From Candidatus Hodarchaeota archaeon (lineage in GTDB: Archaea > Asgardarchaeota > Wukongarchaeia > Wukongarchaeales > Wukongarchaeaceae): a stretch of 49,177 nucleotides of DNA. The position numbers and the translations under genes are program-made. Shown in pieces: positions 7,041-29,201 of this stretch. The first letter of the stretch is position 1. Each line of letters begins with the position of its first letter. The DNA lies in the NCBI GenBank assembly GCA_048886645.1, contig JBHLKN010000002.1:1-49177 (forward strand), in the 5' to 3' direction. The notes below the pieces were generated by a model. It was given only the letters and a program-made list of their open reading frames with translations, had not been told where the DNA came from and made no database searches.

Positions 7041-7943
7041 GTGAAACGTGACGCTAGTGGTCGCTTGCACGTAAAATGCGTTATCTGGGGACCGCAATTA
7101 AGCGGGAAATCCACCATATTCAATGTTCTACTTTCTCGGATGGAGAGAGTTGTTTCCCAAAACTCGATCATCAAAACTTCCACAGAATTCGGGAAAACAA
7201 TGATGTTTGATTATGCTCCTCTCAGACTAAGTGAAAACGTAGTAATAGATCTTTATACAACAGGGGGAGCCTCCTTGTTCTATGCTTTAAGACGAATGAT
7301 TCTTCAAGATTCTGACTGCGTGATTTTTGTCGCAGACACATTAAGAAATGCAGCTGAAAAAAACGTAGAGAGTTTAAGAGAATTAAGAGCCTACTTACAC
7401 CAACTAAAAATAAACCCGAAAATCCTCTTCCTACTCAACCAAAGAGGAGACGTTGTAGAGCCTATAACCCGTTTTGAATTTATCCAAAATTTAGGCGACC
7501 TTGGCATATACGGTCCAGACGTATACGAAGTATCTGCAACAATGGGTTTAGGCGTTTTTGAAGCCTTCAAAATGATGATGAAAAAAACATTAAAAAAAGA
7601 AGAAGAACCTAAAAAAGTAGAAATAATCGAAGAAAAACCCTTTATTATTCCTGAAACTATCCCTCTTGAAGAAAAACCCTTCGAAACAAAAATAGAATAC
7701 CCCTCACCTATAACTGCAGAAACCGAAAAACCCATCATAAAAGAAGACGAAGAAATTTTACCAGAACTAAGCCCCATAAAACGCTCTAAACTAATAATTT
7801 TACGCAGATTAAAAAAACGATTAGAAACCCAACTCTATTCCGCAGATAAATATCTAAAAATAACGCCAAAAGAACTCGATGAAATAAGAACCCAACTAAA
7901 AGAAATAGAAGCCGAAGAAGCAACGCTTCTCTACGGAAAATAA
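7041..7943 (+). CDS. MglA-family small GTPase with about 115-aa acidic, Pro-rich and coiled C-terminal extension
   Basis: GTG start 8 nt after GGAG. It aligns block by block with Myxococcus MglA as I recall it: VKCVIWGPQLSGKST (P-loop), TMMFDYAPL (MglA TLFFDFLPL), DLYTTGGASLFY (MglA LYTVPGQVFY), CVIFVADT, NQRGD (MglA NKRD), SATMGLGVFEAF. The tail carries EEKPF repeats and a terminal helix. Confidence 0.8.
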   Translation: MKRDASGRLHVKCVIWGPQLSGKSTIFNVLLSRMERVVSQNSIIKTSTEFGKTMMFDYAPLRLSENVVIDLYTTGGASLFYALRRMILQDSDCVIFVADTLRNAAEKNVESLRELRAYLHQLKINPKILFLLNQRGDVVEPITRFEFIQNLGDLGIYGPDVYEVSATMGLGVFEAFKMMMKKTLKKEEEPKKVEIIEEKPFIIPETIPLEEKPFETKIEYPSPITAETEKPIIKEDEEILPELSPIKRSKLIILRRLKKRLETQLYSADKYLKITPKELDEIRTQLKEIEAEEATLLYGK

Positions 7944-10672: not shown

Positions 10673-11469
10673 AACACCGCGATTACTCCCACCAAAAAAA
10701 TAAGTTGAAATTTGATAGGAGTGTTTGGGTCCCTCAAGCCCTAAAAATAGAAGAAGCGATCAAGCTAGAACCAATCCTCAAAAAATACCTAGTAAAAAAA
10801 GGAATCGATTTCAAATCTAAAGAAGCCCTCCGCCTTTACAACCTCCTAATAGCACGAGAAAAATATGACCTCGACCTAGAACTACCTAAAAACGCTTTAA
10901 CCCCAACTTCTCCCCTACGCTTCGCTTTCCTCAAAGAAACCATCAAGCCGAAAAACGATGTTTTAGAAATAGGAACAGGAGCAAGCGCCATCATAGCACT
11001 CCTTGCAGCAAAACATTTCAATGCAAAAGTCTTCGCCACAGAAAAAGACCCTCAACTGTACGAATACGCTAGACTAAACGTTAAGAAAAACAGGTTAGAA
11101 GACCGCGTAAAAATAATCCCAGCAGAAAAAAACAACGTTATAAAAGGAATAATAGGGGAAGACGTTAAATTTGATGCCATCCTTTCAAACCCTCCATGGT
11201 ATAAAGAAAAAGAAACAAGAGGGAAAGCATTCTCAGGAAAAACCCACGAACTCAGCGATCAAACCCTATCATCCCAAATCATAAAAGAGGGAGTAGAATT
11301 CCTAAAAAAAGAAGGAATAATAGCGTTACTTTTAAGCGCAAAACACCAAGAAAGAATAAAAAAACTTGAAAACCAAATGAAAAACCTAAAACTCAAAACA
11401 ATCCTCATAAAACTAACAGCAGGAAAAAGAACCCGAGCAATCCTCATAGGAAAAAGAAAAATATATTAG
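10669..11469 (+). CDS. RlmF/METTL16-like class I SAM-dependent (N6-adenine type, NPPW) RNA methyltransferase
   Basis: ATG at 10669 overlaps the upstream TGA (ATGA). GIDFKSKEALRLYNLLIAREKYDLDLELPKNALTPTSPLRF parallels the RlmF N-terminal region. VLEIGTGASAI is motif I and FDAILSNPPWY is motif IV. The 10504 start in the ORF track would overlap the radical SAM gene by 169 nt with a low-complexity basic extension, so I rejected it. Confidence 0.8.
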   Translation: MKHRDYSHQKNKLKFDRSVWVPQALKIEEAIKLEPILKKYLVKKGIDFKSKEALRLYNLLIAREKYDLDLELPKNALTPTSPLRFAFLKETIKPKNDVLEIGTGASAIIALLAAKHFNAKVFATEKDPQLYEYARLNVKKNRLEDRVKIIPAEKNNVIKGIIGEDVKFDAILSNPPWYKEKETRGKAFSGKTHELSDQTLSSQIIKEGVEFLKKEGIIALLLSAKHQERIKKLENQMKNLKLKTILIKLTAGKRTRAILIGKRKIY

Positions 11470-11600
11470 TTATAATAATACCTTAAAAAAATGCGGGGCC
11501 AGTGGCTCAGCTAGGTAGAGCGACAGAAAAGAGAAAAACTCGTCGAAGCTCTTAGCCTCCAAAGGGAAAGTAACCTGTTGGTCGGGGATTCAAATCCCCT
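11439..11600 (+). repeat. Left copy of a diverged direct repeat (methyltransferase 3' end, tRNA promoter, and tRNA-Lys up to the T arm)
   Basis: AATCCTCATAGGAAAAA...ATATTAGTTATAATAATA...GGGCCAGTGGCTCAG...CCCCT aligns with 14310-14480 with scattered substitutions and small indels. Confidence 0.8.
11496..11600 (+). pseudogene. 3'-truncated, degenerate copy of intron-containing tRNA-Lys(CUU)
   Basis: Same 5' acceptor GGGCCAG, D arm, two introns and anticodon loop CTCTTA as the copy at 14375. After the T arm it reads TTGAAAA instead of CTGGCCC, so there is no 3' acceptor strand. The T stem carries a G53-to-A change (GGGGA). Confidence 0.7.
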
Positions 11601-11660
11601 TTGAAAATATGTTAAAGTTTGATAGGAGTTTTCGGTTCTTGGTTCTTCTTCCTGTATTGT

Positions 11661-14171
11661 CTATTTTTTCTCTTCTTTGATTTCAATTTTTGCTAAGGTA
11701 AGGAAATCTTGCCTTATGGCTTCAATAAATGCTTCGTGTGCCTTTCTAGTATTGTCGTCAAATTCAACCTTTGACGCTTGAATTAACTCTTCCAAGAAGA
11801 ATTCTTTCTTCTGATCTGCTAAAATACGGGCAGTCCTCAAAATCTTTTTAACATCATCCCCTACCTCAGCTTCTTCAATCTCTTCATAGCTCAAAGAAAT
11901 CGTGACTTTATCTTGAAGCACTGACGTGGGGGTTATACCGAAAATCTGAATAACTTCTTTATCTAGATTAAGCTGTATATCAAGGACACCAAATGTATCA
12001 GAAGAATAGATATTCCCATACTTTTCCTCAACACACTCCGCAAAACAAAGTACTTTTTCTTCCAAACGTTTACTTGGCTTATCACTCAAAATCAACACAC
12101 AATAAAAAGTGCCAGTATAAACAAAATAGTAAGGATGAGTAGGATAAACTTTCATCGTTTCTAAACTAGTTCTTACAACTTCTTTTGTAATATCTTTAAT
12201 AGCTGTGAAGAAACCGCTCACCAAATTCCTATCTACGACACTTCTCTCCTCAGTAATAACCCCAGAAGGGGTCTGATCATATAAAGCAAAACTCTGCAAA
12301 ATAACCATAATCCTGCGAATCTTCTCCCTATCAAGACGCTCCTGTTTACGAGTTGAGTAAAACCTCGATAAAACAACCGAAGAAAAAGTACCCATTGCCA
12401 TTAAAATTAAGTACGGTGAATAATCTAAAAACTGATCCATGAAAGTTGCCTTTATAACCAATAAAAGTTGTAACGATTGGGGCATGTAATTCTTTAGGCA
12501 AGCTTTTATATTGATATAATATGTCCCTTCATCCAAGGAATTGGTTTTTATATTTAGCTTGTATACGCCTTCACCTACCTCCTCTAACTGGCCCGAACCA
12601 TAATCCCACTCATAGGTAAGGTTAGCGCCAGTGAGCAAGGAACCCTGACTGTCGCTGAAAGTGACTTCGAACACGGCTGTTTCTCCAATTTCCCTAGTAA
12701 GGGTAATTTTGTCAGCGCTTAAAGTGGTTGATATGGGGATTATTTCAAGAGTAAGTTGCAGAGACTGGCTGTCATAGTTCTCCTTGGAAGCAGTCACGTT
12801 GATGCAGTAGGTTCCCAAGTCCAAGTAACCAGTATCTATTGTTAAGTTGTAGACGCCGTTGCCTATTTCGTTTAATGGCTCCGATCCGTAGCTCCATTCG
12901 TATACAACTTTTGCACCTGTTATGGGGGCATCGTTATAGGTGTCTCTGAAGGCGACTTCTAAAGCTGCTGCTACACCAGACTCCCTCACCAGGATGGTGT
13001 AAGGCGCGTTTAAAGCCGTTGAAATGTTAACCACGTTAACCTTTATCGGAAAGCGTTGGCGTTCGAACCCTGGAGCAATGGCGTTAACCCAGACAGGGTA
13101 ATATAGCCCCGAATCAATTGTTTGAGGTGCTTGGAGGGTTACTGTATAGCTGCTCAAAACGGGATCATTGTGTTTTTCAAAACCGAATCCTCCCATCCAA
13201 GGTGTTCCATTGTAGGTTATCTCTATTTGAGCGTTTTCGACAAGTTTCAGTTTACTCTCAGAAATGTTGAAGTAAGCGTAGTAAACGCTGAAATTTACAT
13301 AGTCGCCGTATGTAGCCTTGACTTCTGGGGGCAGAATATAATACGTGCTCTCTGATTCTATAATTAAACCAATATTATCTACATAAATTTGGGTTGTATT
13401 GGAGTAAGGTTCACTGCCATAAGCGTCATTTGTAACAACCAACTCGACTTTAAACTCTAAATAGCTCGGCAAACGCTCGTTTAACCATTCTGAGAGCTTC
13501 ATTCCTTCAGCAGAGGTAATTTTAACGTAGGTCCATCCACTACCCGGCCCGGTGAGGTCTCTGAGTCTGCCTTCCCACATCAACGTGTCGTTGATCCAAA
13601 ACCGAAGGTTGATCCTATACCTTATCTGCCATGTCTCGTTATCTGCTGCCATAACATAGTAATCGAAAACAAGCCTAGCACCCTCTTCAGTTTCTGGAAT
13701 TGGAGTGTGCCTATCAACCATAACAGTTTGACTCCACCAAACTTTATCGTCTTCATCGTAGTCGTAATATGATCCTTCAAGATCCCCATCAATTCTCAGA
13801 AGTATGTTGACTTCTCCAGGCCCAGTTTCGTTCTGATGAGTTGGATCTCCGGTCCAATAAGTTGTCATGTTATTCTGATGAGAGGGTGCGTCGTAGGTAC
13901 CGTTGTTCCATGGTTTGTATGTGTCTTCAAAGGTACCGTTGATGAGCCAATTTTCTTCGCCATCCGTCACGTAAGTTGAACGGCTAGGTAGATCAGGTGA
14001 TTGCAGGCTTTCAGACGTATCGTAAGCCTCTTCATACAGATTAAAAGGGTCAAAATATACGGATAATAACGTTGAAGTGACAAATAAGACTAATAAAAAT
14101 CCAGTTAGAAACGACTTTTTTTGGGTTTGATAAACCATACCCATTTGGTATATCAAACAAATATCCCCCAA
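11661..14171 (-). CDS. Type I-like surface protein: N-terminal anchor, CBM/jelly-roll-like domain, three Ig-like repeats, one TM helix, cytoplasmic longin/roadblock-like domain and helical tail
   Basis: ORF track entry. Hydrophobic aa 21-39. About 14 N-x-S/T sequons, all before aa 580. WLINGTFEDTYKPWNNG. Tandem repeats at aa 383-480 and 481-576 (nt 12444-13025). TM at aa 586-603 (nt 12363-12416). The cytoplasmic part reads ILQSFALYD..GVITEE..LVSGFFTAIKDITKEV..MKVY..YYFVYTG..FYCVLILSD..LEEKVLCFAECVEEKYG. The start may be M10 or M12. Confidence 0.8.
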   Translation of the reverse strand: MGDICLIYQMGMVYQTQKKSFLTGFLLVLFVTSTLLSVYFDPFNLYEEAYDTSESLQSPDLPSRSTYVTDGEENWLINGTFEDTYKPWNNGTYDAPSHQNNMTTYWTGDPTHQNETGPGEVNILLRIDGDLEGSYYDYDEDDKVWWSQTVMVDRHTPIPETEEGARLVFDYYVMAADNETWQIRYRINLRFWINDTLMWEGRLRDLTGPGSGWTYVKITSAEGMKLSEWLNERLPSYLEFKVELVVTNDAYGSEPYSNTTQIYVDNIGLIIESESTYYILPPEVKATYGDYVNFSVYYAYFNISESKLKLVENAQIEITYNGTPWMGGFGFEKHNDPVLSSYTVTLQAPQTIDSGLYYPVWVNAIAPGFERQRFPIKVNVVNISTALNAPYTILVRESGVAAALEVAFRDTYNDAPITGAKVVYEWSYGSEPLNEIGNGVYNLTIDTGYLDLGTYCINVTASKENYDSQSLQLTLEIIPISTTLSADKITLTREIGETAVFEVTFSDSQGSLLTGANLTYEWDYGSGQLEEVGEGVYKLNIKTNSLDEGTYYINIKACLKNYMPQSLQLLLVIKATFMDQFLDYSPYLILMAMGTFSSVVLSRFYSTRKQERLDREKIRRIMVILQSFALYDQTPSGVITEERSVVDRNLVSGFFTAIKDITKEVVRTSLETMKVYPTHPYYFVYTGTFYCVLILSDKPSKRLEEKVLCFAECVEEKYGNIYSSDTFGVLDIQLNLDKEVIQIFGITPTSVLQDKVTISLSYEEIEEAEVGDDVKKILRTARILADQKKEFFLEELIQASKVEFDDNTRKAHEAFIEAIRQDFLTLAKIEIKEEKK

Positions 14172-14309
14172 TAAAGAATGATACTTCTCTAAAAGAATAA
14201 GATATTATTAATTAAATATTCTCAACAAACGATATAATCATTTTTCCTATTTTGTCGAATAATATCTGCTTTAAATCCAAATTAATCCAATGACGTACCA
14301 AACACAAGA

Positions 14310-14480
14310 AATCCTTATAGGAAAAATATATTAAAAAACATATTAGTTAATAATAACACAATAAAAAGCCACAAGGGCCAGTAGCTCAGCTAGGTAGAGC
14401 GACAGAAAAGAACAAAAACCCGTCGAAGCTCTTAACCTTCAAAAGGAAAGTAACCTGTTGGTCGGGGGTTCAAATCCCCT
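14310..14480 (+). repeat. Right copy of the diverged direct repeat (relic of the methyltransferase C-terminus, promoter, and tRNA-Lys)
   Basis: GAA ATC CTT ATA GGA AAA ATA TAT TAA encodes EILIGKIY*. The intact gene end at 11436-11469 encodes AILIGKRKIY*, so the relic has an in-frame 6-nt deletion. The homologous promoter and tRNA body follow. Confidence 0.8.
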
Positions 14481-14491
14481 CTGGCCCGCCA
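14375..14491 (+). tRNA. tRNA-Lys(CUU) with two introns (about 22 nt near position 30/31 and 18 nt at canonical 37/38) and encoded CCA
   Basis: Acceptor GGGCCAG/CTGGCCC, D arm GCTC-AGCTAGGTA-GAGC, T arm GGGGG-TTCAAAT-CCCCT, discriminator G plus CCA. Removing 14406-14427 and 14435-14452 gives anticodon arm ACAGG-CTCTTAA-CCTGT, with anticodon CTT at 14431-14433, and a 74-nt mature body that resembles archaeal tRNA-Lys. Splice junctions can slide by 1-2 nt. Confidence 0.85.
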
Positions 14492-14726: not shown

Positions 14727-15314
14727 ATGAAACTATTCCATGTAGTTAAAGACGATTTAGAAGAAATTAACGAAGCAGAATTTTACGAAGGCGATGTATA
14801 CGTAGTAGACGATGGAATGCGAATTTTCATATGGCGAGGCAAAGATTGCACTGTTGATGAAAAGTTCGTCGGAGCATGGCTCAGTAACAAGCTAGATATG
14901 GACAGACGTGGGTACCCCAAGGTTGTCTCGTGTACTCAAGGAGACGAACCGCAAGATTTGATAGATTTGCTTGGCGGTGCTCCAAAAGTGAAGCCTGGAG
15001 GGACTCCAGGACTCCTAGCACACGTAGAAGTGGAGAAAGAAGTGTTTAAACCAAAGCTTTACAAGGCGATAGGTCCTGAAAACTTCGAGGAAGTGCCTCT
15101 TGCAAGGTCAAGTTTAGTCGGTGATGACGCTTTTGTTTTAGACGACGGTCTTAACATCTATGTTTGGCTTGGTCGTGGTGCTTCTGCGCTTGAAAAGTTT
15201 GAAGCAGGTCGTATCGGGCGGAAGCTTGATTCTGAGAGAAAATTTACACCTCAAGTGATCGTTATACATGAAGGCGAAGATGAGCCACCGAAATTTAAAG
15301 AACTCTTAGGATAA
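14727..15314 (+). CDS. Two-domain gelsolin/cofilin-fold protein (Asgard 2DGel-like actin regulator)
   Basis: There are two gelsolin repeats: FYEGDVYVVDDGMRIFIWRGKDCTVDEKFVGAWLSNKLD...TQGDEPQDLIDLLGG and LVGDDAFVLDDGLNIYVWLGRGASALEKFEAGRIGRKLD...HEGEDEPPKFKELLG. Both match the gelsolin pattern D.F.LD.G..IY.W.G...s..Ek..A......EG.EP..F. SD AAGGAG lies upstream. Confidence 0.8.
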   Translation: MKLFHVVKDDLEEINEAEFYEGDVYVVDDGMRIFIWRGKDCTVDEKFVGAWLSNKLDMDRRGYPKVVSCTQGDEPQDLIDLLGGAPKVKPGGTPGLLAHVEVEKEVFKPKLYKAIGPENFEEVPLARSSLVGDDAFVLDDGLNIYVWLGRGASALEKFEAGRIGRKLDSERKFTPQVIVIHEGEDEPPKFKELLG

Positions 15315-28466: not shown

Positions 28467-29201
28467 TTAAAAAGTTATAGCAGGGGGAGTTCTTTCCGCT
28501 CTTAAACGTTCTATTTCGAGAAGGATTTCTGTTGCTTGCTTTGCAAAAGGTGTTAGTTCAAAAGTTTGAGCATACCAGTCTGCAGATAAAACCCTCCGCC
28601 ACTCTAACCATCTAAGCATCAACCTTGCTTTTTGAAGGGTAACGTTTAACCGTTGAGCTATCTTTTCAAGAGAGTTTGGATTACTCCCTTCCTCTAAGAT
28701 TACACGTAAGATAGGAAGCATTCTTCTCAAGATGGCAAGAGTTAACACTTTGAGTGCACGTTCTATACCCTCACCTGTGGTTGCGCTTGTACCTATAATG
28801 AAGTAATCTTCTTGGGAGAAACCTGCGAGGTGAGCTGCTTCCTCGGGTGGTAGAGCTGAAGGGATATCTTGTTTGTTTGCTGCGATTATTATTGGCACGT
28901 GAGGTAGCATGTTTTTTATCTCTGAAAACAACGCTTGAGACTCATTTGCGTCGGGTTTTGTAGAGTCTATTAGGAATAAAACACCATCTGCTCCTGTAGA
29001 TAACACTCTTCGAACAATATCGAATCGTTTTAAACCAGGGGTCCCGAAAAGAAAAACAGACATGCTGAAAACTTCTGCGACTGCATAATCTAAAGCGACT
29101 GTGGTTCCTGCACGGTCTATTGATATACTTGATCCTTCACTTACCTTGCTTACAAAGGTTGATTTCCCTGAGTTGAAGGGCCCCATTATCAAGATCTTCA
29201 A
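28467..29201 (-). CDS. COG2229/CvnD-like small GTPase fused to a C-terminal helix-turn-helix-like domain
   Basis: G1 GPFNSGKST, TTVALDY, G3 LFGTPGLKRF, G4 NKQD, G5 SATTGEG. The C-terminal 80 aa read NSLEKIAQRLNVTLQKARLMLRWLEWRRVL. Confidence 0.85.
   Translation of the reverse strand: MKILIMGPFNSGKSTFVSKVSEGSSISIDRAGTTVALDYAVAEVFSMSVFLFGTPGLKRFDIVRRVLSTGADGVLFLIDSTKPDANESQALFSEIKNMLPHVPIIIAANKQDIPSALPPEEAAHLAGFSQEDYFIIGTSATTGEGIERALKVLTLAILRRMLPILRVILEEGSNPNSLEKIAQRLNVTLQKARLMLRWLEWRRVLSADWYAQTFELTPFAKQATEILLEIERLRAERTPPAITF

Follow-up and report, generated by a model that had tools for sequence, protein, structure and literature searches.

The window, by which we mean the whole stretch of DNA analyzed here, is the entire 49,177-nucleotide contig C2 of an assembly of a Candidatus Hodarchaeota archaeon, an Asgard archaeon of Wukongarchaeota-like affiliation (1.93 Mb in 143 contigs, 87% complete). 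On its minus strand, a reading frame stays open for 836 codons from a TTG at position 14171 to position 11661, and this open reading frame (ORF; 11661..14171) is a real gene. It encodes a predicted surface receptor in which a sequon-rich ectodomain is joined by a single membrane span to a cytoplasmic module consisting of a longin/roadblock-fold domain, a linker and a winged-helix-like domain; this architecture and fold, taken jointly, are in our judgment highly probable. The numbering of the 836-amino-acid (aa) ORF is used throughout. The protein itself is probably 825-827 aa long, because its orthologues P0004 and P0005 begin at the equivalent of M12 and a database copy of 827 aa (P0003) begins at M10, which makes the ATG of M12 (14136-14138, minus strand) and M10 (14142-14144, minus strand) the candidate true starts.

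Two hydrophobic stretches frame most of the protein. The first, residues 20-42 (14046..14114, minus strand), is a predicted signal sequence or signal anchor with a Kyte-Doolittle (KD) mean of 2.05 over 19 residues; it is preceded by KK, is followed by acidic residues, and is hydrophobic in orthologues as well. The second, residues ~584-605 (12357..12422, minus strand), is a predicted transmembrane helix with a 19-mer KD mean of 1.34, as against 1.65-2.74 at the equivalent position of the orthologues. It is helical in the first of our two AlphaFold2 (AF2) models, and the basic stretch STRKQERLDREKIRR, rich in R and K, comes directly after it. The protein has exactly 14 N-X-S/T sequons, matching the number estimated in a preliminary description of this DNA, and all of them fall in residues 78-517, between both hydrophobic stretches. 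Shuffled versions of the protein carry 6.0 ± 2.2 sequons and reached 14 in 1 of 2000 shuffles. Across 15 family members, ectodomains hold 9-36 sequons and cytoplasmic parts 0-1. Because of this sequon distribution and of the charge pattern around the two hydrophobic segments, read by the positive-inside rule, residues ~45-583 are placed outside the cell and residues ~606-836 inside. These data support a predicted type I-like surface glycoprotein topology with an ectodomain of ~540 aa and ~230 residues in the cytoplasm. The N-terminal anchor, ~540-aa ectodomain and single membrane span that the preliminary description had proposed are thus borne out by hydrophobicity, sequons and charge, and the inverted topology that it had named as its refuting case is opposed by the sequon distribution and the positive-inside rule.

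The ectodomain is divided into four regions, all on the minus strand. Residues 45-279 (13335..14039), the part previously described as CBM/jelly-roll-like, are sequon-rich, have no match in Pfam, NCBIfam or PDB sequences, and are not conserved beyond P0004, P0005 and P0008, the closest orthologues. Residues 280-382 (13026..13334) had been called Ig-like; their similarity to the two repeats that follow is not significant (z 0.6-1.3). These two, the PKD/Ig-like repeats B (residues 383-474; 12750..13025) and C (residues 475-567; 12471..12749), are identical at 45 of 88 positions, so that an identity put at roughly 45% by eye is 51% when measured (z = 32 against shuffles). Pfam PKD (PF00801) matches two stretches, with a score of 31.1 bits against a cut-off of 23.5 and the best match at residues 497-558 (E 2.3e-7). 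Nothing besides PKD was returned by Pfam and NCBIfam scans of the whole protein.

Just inside the membrane lies the predicted longin/roadblock-fold domain (residues ~611-723; 12003..12341, minus strand), in which a short juxtamembrane helix is followed by β1, β2, α1, β3, β4, β5 and a long α2, with the motif D-x-x-L-V-S-G-F-F-x-A-I in α1. We modeled the cytoplasmic part with AF2, numbering from residue 610. Model 1, built from 14 close orthologues, gave predicted local distance difference test (pLDDT) values of 82-96 for the C-terminal ~80 residues and of 27-60 for the longin part just past the membrane; its Foldseek matches were non-significant, yet the list consisted almost wholly of longin/roadblock proteins. 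Because the longin part was poorly modeled, we widened the alignment to 50 sequences, adding receptor-type relatives from another Asgard family and paralogues from the same genome, and obtained the template-free model 2 with a mean pLDDT of 77.8. Its first unit comprises H2-8, E9-16, E19-24, H39-56, E63-65, E72-76, E81-86 and H92-114 (H, helix; E, strand), with pLDDT values of 81-91 for β1-2, β4-5 and α2. This is the five-strand order of the superfamily core, beta-beta-alpha-beta-beta-beta, plus flanking helices, and it reproduces the beta-beta-alpha-beta-beta-beta-alpha order from which a longin/roadblock domain had been predicted.

When model 2 was compared with the PDB by Foldseek, each of the best 50 matches was a longin/roadblock protein, and no unrelated fold was obtained. 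Among them are sedlin, zeta-COP, delta-COP, TRAPP subunits of the Bet5/Trs23/Trs20 type, the longin domains of VAMP7 and SYBL1, the N-terminal domains of AP sigma and mu, MglB, the roadblock domains of RagA/C, and MP1-p14. Foldseek probabilities are 0.93-1.0 for 49 matches and 0.75 for one. Target-normalized template-modeling scores (TM-scores) lie between 0.38 and 0.56 for most matches and drop to 0.25-0.34 for the long Rag and COPI-leaf chains; root-mean-square deviations (rmsd) are mostly 4-7 Å across 109-160 columns. The lowest E-values belong to longin-type entries, the best TM-scores and rmsd to MglB and Rag.

Pfam scans of 14 isolated cytoplasmic domains returned nothing relevant, and neither phmmer nor hmmsearch, with the single sequence or the family profile, found a PDB sequence match for the longin part. 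The genome holds 11 Robl_LC7 matches, all of them elsewhere than in the receptor, and no Longin match above the cut-off. Profile-profile comparison (hhalign) aligned the receptor domain in register with these 11 Robl_LC7 proteins, at a probability of 89% (E 2.3e-6) when the paralogues were in the query profile and 47% (E 1.9e-4) when the query held receptor-type sequences only; with the 14 close orthologues alone the value was 0.15%, and a negative control against small GTPases gave 0.1%. We take a longin/roadblock fold for residues ~611-723 to be well supported at the level of the superfold; by sequence score, the domain belongs to neither Pfam family.

A linker with one short predicted helix (residues ~724-750; 11922..12002, minus strand; seen in the alignment and in model 2) leads to the last domain. 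The linker varies in length, and some homologues have a duplication within it; in P0015-P0017, the duplicated element is the short motif 'EVMQIFGITP'. What follows had been described as a helical tail. Instead, residues ~751-831 (11679..11921, minus strand) are modeled as a winged-helix-like alpha/beta domain, and with pLDDT values of 82-96 they are the best-modeled part of the protein. The second unit of model 2 contains H128-135, E142-149, H153-158, H163-179, H184-194, H199-211 and E215-222; the winged-helix order is given by H163-179, a short strand, H184-194, H199-211 and E215-222, with E142-149 as an extra strand in front. Compared with the PDB, a profile of this region weakly matches DEPTOR, in its DEP domain (E 0.008-0.05), and MarR (E 1.1), and the tails of paralogues give weak Pfam matches to MarR, ArsR, TrmB, IclR and other winged helix-turn-helix (wHTH) families. 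The net charge of the domain is -6 in this protein and ranges from -8 to +6 among family members. Because of these charges, which are a crude test, a classical role in DNA binding is argued against, and all matches to DNA-binding wHTH families are below threshold. We read residues ~751-831 as a confidently modeled, non-basic winged-helix-like domain, for which a role as a protein-protein adaptor is likelier than DNA binding. It makes up half of the conserved cytoplasmic module, a half that the preliminary description missed. As a separate observation, the C-termini of P0009, P0011 and P0014 carry a second winged-helix-like segment after a Lys/Glu-rich spacer (...YE.TLSLEEID.KK...KKEF...EKKA.K.LKKALKTGYL.E).

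This module recurs under very different ectodomains. With residues 600-836 as query, a collection of 5.8 billion proteins yielded 16 proteins of 503-1320 aa that are 49-99% identical over the module; their ectodomains carry PKD, Wzt_C, Big_3_5 with MG2, or nothing recognizable, and their named sources are Wukongarchaeota, Hodarchaeota and 'Asgard group archaeon'. When 1.8 billion representatives were searched exhaustively with phmmer, the 9 matches were all strong and all from the close family, and there was no bridge to known families. Profile searching added one weak stand-alone relative, P0019 (194 aa), which matches the family profile at 95.5% hhalign probability and Pfam Longin faintly (E 0.11), and which as a query found only itself.

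Within the genome, an iterative HMM search of the ORFs converged on 13 further paralogues that have in common a D-x-x-L-[VI]-S-G-[FL]-[FL]-x-A-[IV] helix and the pattern of strands around it. None of the 13 is among the genome's Robl_LC7 matches, and none is recognized by Pfam, which returned one faint match, to Fuz_longin_1 (E 0.17). They look like the counterpart in this genome of the 'longin-like' expansion seen in Lokiarchaeum. Winged-helix-like ends are present in C51:2125-2766, C79:7639-8292, C53:10080-10838 and C62:5125-7131. The last of these (minus strand) is a soluble paralogue of 668 aa with a helical-repeat N-terminus that is HEAT-like by eye, followed by the longin-like domain and the winged-helix-like end. 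Two others, C10:9948-10868 and C96:158-946 (both minus strand), have the reverse of the receptor order, with the longin-like domain N-terminal and several predicted transmembrane helices after it.

We then ran the domain profile against 400 genomes of the phylum, a survey of Asgard genomes that the preliminary description had recommended. Strong matches (E ~1e-60) are confined to the genus of the window, namely its own genome and a second one with two copies. Weaker matches (E 1e-9 to 1e-10) come from 21 genomes that belong to another Asgard family, labeled variously Promethearchaeota, Thorarchaeota, Hodarchaeota and Promethearchaeia, and outscore the best paralogue of the receptor's own genome (5.5e-6 in the all-ORF search). 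Many of these relatives are 750-1100 aa long and run from a sequon-rich N-terminus through one transmembrane helix, a basic stretch, the domain and a linker helix to a winged-helix-like end; some are soluble. The cytoplasmic module is thus conserved beneath very different ectodomains and belongs to a larger Asgard family of longin-like paralogues, some with the winged helix.

The immediate neighbors of the receptor gene are of other kinds. On its 3' side lies a convergent RlmF-like methyltransferase gene, coupled to a radical-SAM gene; on its 5' side are a tRNA gene (14375-14488, plus strand) and then a divergent gene for a two-domain gelsolin (14727-15314, plus strand). The tRNA gene was missed by ARAGORN and has a full-length Rfam model match of 50.3 bits; its length of 114 nt implies one or more introns. 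The two orphan GTPase genes of the longin-partnered superfamily that had been reported for the window are both there, one Gtr1/Arf-like (7041-7943, plus strand) and one Arf/Ras-like (28467-29201, minus strand); a link to the receptor does not hold for either, each being a separate transcription unit. In the relative L026, two receptor genes stand in tandem with a methyltransferase gene after each, there are two gelsolin genes, also in tandem (L026:4333-5564), and a GTPase orthologue lies at equal distance from the receptor. Because the whole region is syntenic, this arrangement is uninformative about the receptor specifically.

Direct repeats bracket the receptor gene (11430-11603 and 14301-14483), 2.87-2.88 kb apart, with 26 nt at 85%, 43 nt at 93% and 77 nt at 88% identity. 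The upstream set covers the tRNA gene, and the downstream set at 11496-11603 is a diverged copy for which Rfam made no tRNA call at E <= 0.01. Together with the tandem arrangement in L026, the repeats look like the trace of a tandem duplication of methyltransferase, tRNA and receptor genes.

The neighborhood of the more distant receptors is more informative. We fetched 8 loci from the other family with 10-kb flanks, and examined 10 loci of a closer subfamily (L038-L047). Downstream of the receptor gene, on the same strand, lies an ORF of 147-152 aa at 6 of the 8 loci and at all 10 loci of the closer subfamily. Its product matches the longin-like superfamily profile at E 1e-11 to 1e-16 and the Robl_LC7 profile more weakly, at E 1e-4 to 1e-5. 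The conserved neighbor of the receptors in the other family is this small partner, not a GTPase. In L038-L047 (for example L038:3752-4210, plus strand), the partner gene is always immediately downstream of the receptor gene; its product typically begins MDEIIWI.IID.SGA.IFSY.NY and has no Pfam match.

Small GTPase genes lie a few genes from the receptor at 5 of the 8 loci. At L030:8586-11979 (minus strand; G277:C5), receptor, GTPase and partner form a tight three-gene operon: a 785-aa receptor with the transmembrane, longin and winged-helix tail is followed after 33 nt by an Arf/Gtr1-RagA-like GTPase of 185 aa (Pfam 2e-23 and 5e-23), whose gene overlaps by 8 nt that of a 150-aa longin/roadblock-like partner. 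At two orthologous loci, a gene for a 184-aa Ras-family GTPase (5e-43) is convergent with the partner gene. Downstream of the receptor-partner pairs at L034:7325-8881 and L035:4784-6331 (both minus strand), proteins of 515-518 aa combine an N-terminal match to the Robl_LC7 profile with a Ras domain (Pfam 2e-43) and an uncharacterized C-terminus of ~190 aa, and one of these two loci has an additional 243-aa Ras-family gene upstream.

Several known systems resemble the receptor tail in part. The roadblock/LC7, MglB and LAMTOR proteins (MglB, 6hjm and 1j3w; MP1-p14, 3cpt; RagA/C, 6s6a) share its alpha-beta-beta-alpha-beta-beta-beta(-alpha) core and give the best target-normalized TM-scores (0.50-0.56) at rmsd values of 3.9-4.9 Å. 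Ragulator is, like the proposed receptor platform, fixed to a membrane; it differs in using the lipidated anchor LAMTOR1, whereas the receptor would use its own transmembrane helix under a glycosylated ectodomain. Unlike the roadblock platforms, the receptor domain lacks a Pfam Robl_LC7 match and has a winged helix after it, and GTPase binding and activity as a GTPase-activating protein (GAP) or guanine nucleotide exchange factor (GEF) are putative for its tail. The longins (sedlin/TRAPPC2, 1h3q; Bet5/Trs23; VAMP7; Sec22b; AP sigma; COPI zeta) share the beta-beta-alpha-beta-beta-beta-alpha order with its long C-terminal helix and gave the lowest Foldseek E-values (0.003-0.01), and the sequence pattern of β4, β5 and α2 presumably resembles that of the sigma-adaptins. 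They differ from the receptor in that Pfam Longin has no match in it. In the longin SNAREs, the order is longin, SNARE and C-terminal transmembrane helix; by contrast, in the receptor the transmembrane helix precedes the domain and there is no SNARE motif.

A third likeness is to NPRL2/NPRL3 of GATOR1/SEACIT, GAP subunits in which further C-terminal domains follow a longin domain. The top Foldseek match of model 1, which aligned over both domains, is a chain of the SEA complex (8adl_S), a match that is not significant (E 0.09, TM-score 0.22). 'NPRL2-like longin' is a recognized Asgard protein family (PMC9834061), and catalytic GAP longins of the FLCN, NPRL2 and SMCR8/C9orf72 type carry a GP motif in or before β2 of the longin domain (PMC12290439). 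The receptor differs from these in lacking the motif in its β1-β2 turn, and NPRL2/NPRL3-type proteins differ from it in being soluble, with no ectodomain. Asgard longin and roadblock proteins and their fusions to GTPases are already known: Lokiarchaeum has 41 longin-like domains and 38 of the roadblock type, with some fusions to GTPases among them (PMC4917890, PMC10933270), and Asgard GTPases are seldom found in operons with their regulators (PMC10933270, PMC4917890). The receptor and the 13 paralogues of its kind share phylum and fold family with these expansions and differ from the published accounts, which concern soluble proteins and GTPase fusions. In a non-exhaustive search of the literature, we found no description of a longin/roadblock domain joined through a transmembrane helix to a glycosylated ectodomain, or of a longin-winged helix cassette.

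As the best explanation of the whole, we propose a surface glycoprotein that carries a membrane-fixed longin/roadblock platform for a small GTPase, a reading for which we judge the case evenly balanced. The N-terminal signal or anchor would put ~540 residues outside the cell, where they would probably be N-glycosylated, and the longin/roadblock domain would be held at the membrane by the short juxtamembrane helix, with the winged helix after it. The tail would most likely pair, either with another identical tail or with a soluble protein of the longin/roadblock type, and the resulting pair would be a membrane-fixed platform that could bring in a small GTPase, or a fusion of roadblock domain and GTPase, and perhaps regulate it as well. 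Contacts made by the ectodomain would then set where and when the switch acts, possibly through clustering. Eukaryotes and bacteria alike dock small GTPases on this fold, and we propose the pairing and the platform because of four precedents: MglB with MglA, Ragulator and the roadblock domains of Rag, the pair of TRAPP longins that acts with Rab1, and SRX together with SR-beta.

For this particular protein, involvement of a GTPase is a tentative suggestion drawn from analogy. Fold and topology are supported, whereas the coupling to a GTPase is something we infer, because the gene forms a unit by itself and neither GTPase gene of the window is linked to it. The earlier proposal of a transmembrane input into small-GTPase signaling accordingly stands in part: genes for distant members of the cassette family do lie near GTPase genes and the partner gene, and nothing of the kind is linked to this gene.

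A number of observations weigh against the GTPase-platform reading. No GTPase, roadblock, longin or partner gene adjoins the receptor in the window, where the two GTPase genes lie 3.7 kb and 14.3 kb away, unlinked; the locus of a 51%-identical homologue sits among helix-turn-helix, thermosome and fibrillarin genes with no GTPase nearby; and a small GTPase adjoins just 2 of the 13 paralogues in the receptor's own genome, which is chance level. In the other family, a Ras-type gene lies within 3 kb of the receptor at 4 of the 8 loci, sporadically and at loci that are not independent of one another. Those genomes hold 42-90 Ras-family matches each, or ~1 per 50 kb, a density at which chance alone would place one within 3 kb of ~1 locus in 8; because the loci are related, the excess is suggestive and not significant. 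Further, the α1 and β3 elements of model 2 have pLDDT values of just 52-61, and the Foldseek E-values are modest (2.6e-3 to 2e-2). Neither Pfam Longin (PF13774) nor Robl_LC7 (PF03259) matches the receptor or 14 family members at E <= 10. The GP motif is absent, the β1-β2 turn reading ...IMVILQSFALYDQ... here and ...SDIKSGVNVYEQ... in the other receptor branch. Finally, longin folds also have functions in which no GTPase takes part.

The main rival, which we regard as somewhat unlikely, is that the transmembrane-longin-winged helix tail needs no GTPase and gives many Asgard surface proteins a common intracellular handle, by which they would be positioned, clustered, or tied to the cytoskeleton or to envelope machinery. 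One tail under very different ectodomains would suit such a handle, as would the lack of a GTPase linked to the receptor gene, and Lokiarchaeial cells have no S-layer and many complex surface proteins (PMC9834061). Gelsolin genes adjoin the receptor here and in the syntenic relative, and roadblock, longin and profilin folds have a common core (PMC10933270). The gelsolin synteny, however, is confined to close relatives in which the whole region is syntenic, and in structure the domain comes closest to GTPase platforms and coat subunits, not to profilin. In addition, receptors of the other branch have a conserved operon partner that is longin/roadblock-like, and genes for GTPases turn up repeatedly in the vicinity.

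Two further readings are less likely. In the first, which we consider highly improbable, the protein is a membrane-bound one-component regulator whose winged helix binds DNA, in the manner of ToxR or CadC or after proteolytic release, while the longin-like domain dimerizes or senses. The winged-helix-like fold modeled at high pLDDT and the weak MarR-, ArsR-, TrmB- and IclR-type matches in paralogue tails are consistent with it. Against it, the negative net charge of the domain is accompanied by few basic residues in the putative recognition helix, every wHTH sequence match is below its family cut-off, and the best PDB sequence match is to DEP, a winged helix that binds proteins and membranes. 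We rejected ToxR-like DNA binding as the main explanation on the charge of the winged helix. The most improbable reading of all, a PAS/GAF-like small-molecule sensor or other longin look-alike that would make the protein an adhesin with an unrelated regulatory tail, can draw on the occasional grouping of longins with PAS/GAF-like folds (PMC4917890), on the low-confidence parts of model 2 and on the missing Pfam match, and is countered by the absence of PAS and GAF from the best 50 Foldseek matches, by the in-register profile-profile signal with Robl_LC7, and by the faint matches to Longin in the stand-alone relative and to Fuz_longin_1 in a paralogue.

If the GTPase-platform reading is extended beyond this protein, the cassette of transmembrane helix, longin/roadblock domain and winged helix could be an Asgard way to fix GTPase platforms at the membrane, replacing the eukaryotic lipid anchors and tethers of the LAMTOR1 type. 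We consider this extension unlikely as it stands. If true, receptors would carry their own Ragulator- or MglB-like platform, pair with the soluble partner and recruit Arf-, Rag- or Ras-like GTPases on contact, and this would amount to a receptor-to-small-GTPase pathway in a prokaryote, one that might prefigure the membrane-bound longin/roadblock complexes of eukaryotes.

Asgard genomes contain dozens of genes for Ras-, Arf- and Rag-like GTPases, together with many for longin and roadblock proteins. To our knowledge, neither the targets of these GTPases nor their route to the membrane are known, and the eukaryotic lipid-modification machinery is missing. The cassette gives testable candidates for such a route: the receptor tail, the ~150-aa partners, and the neighboring GTPases of related genomes. 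Should the link to a GTPase fail, the cassette would still mark a large, unannotated family of Asgard surface proteins. Should it hold, a receptor-to-small-GTPase route would for the first time be known from a prokaryote that is a close relative of eukaryotes, and the receptor may show how Asgard archaea join the cell surface to eukaryote-like switches.

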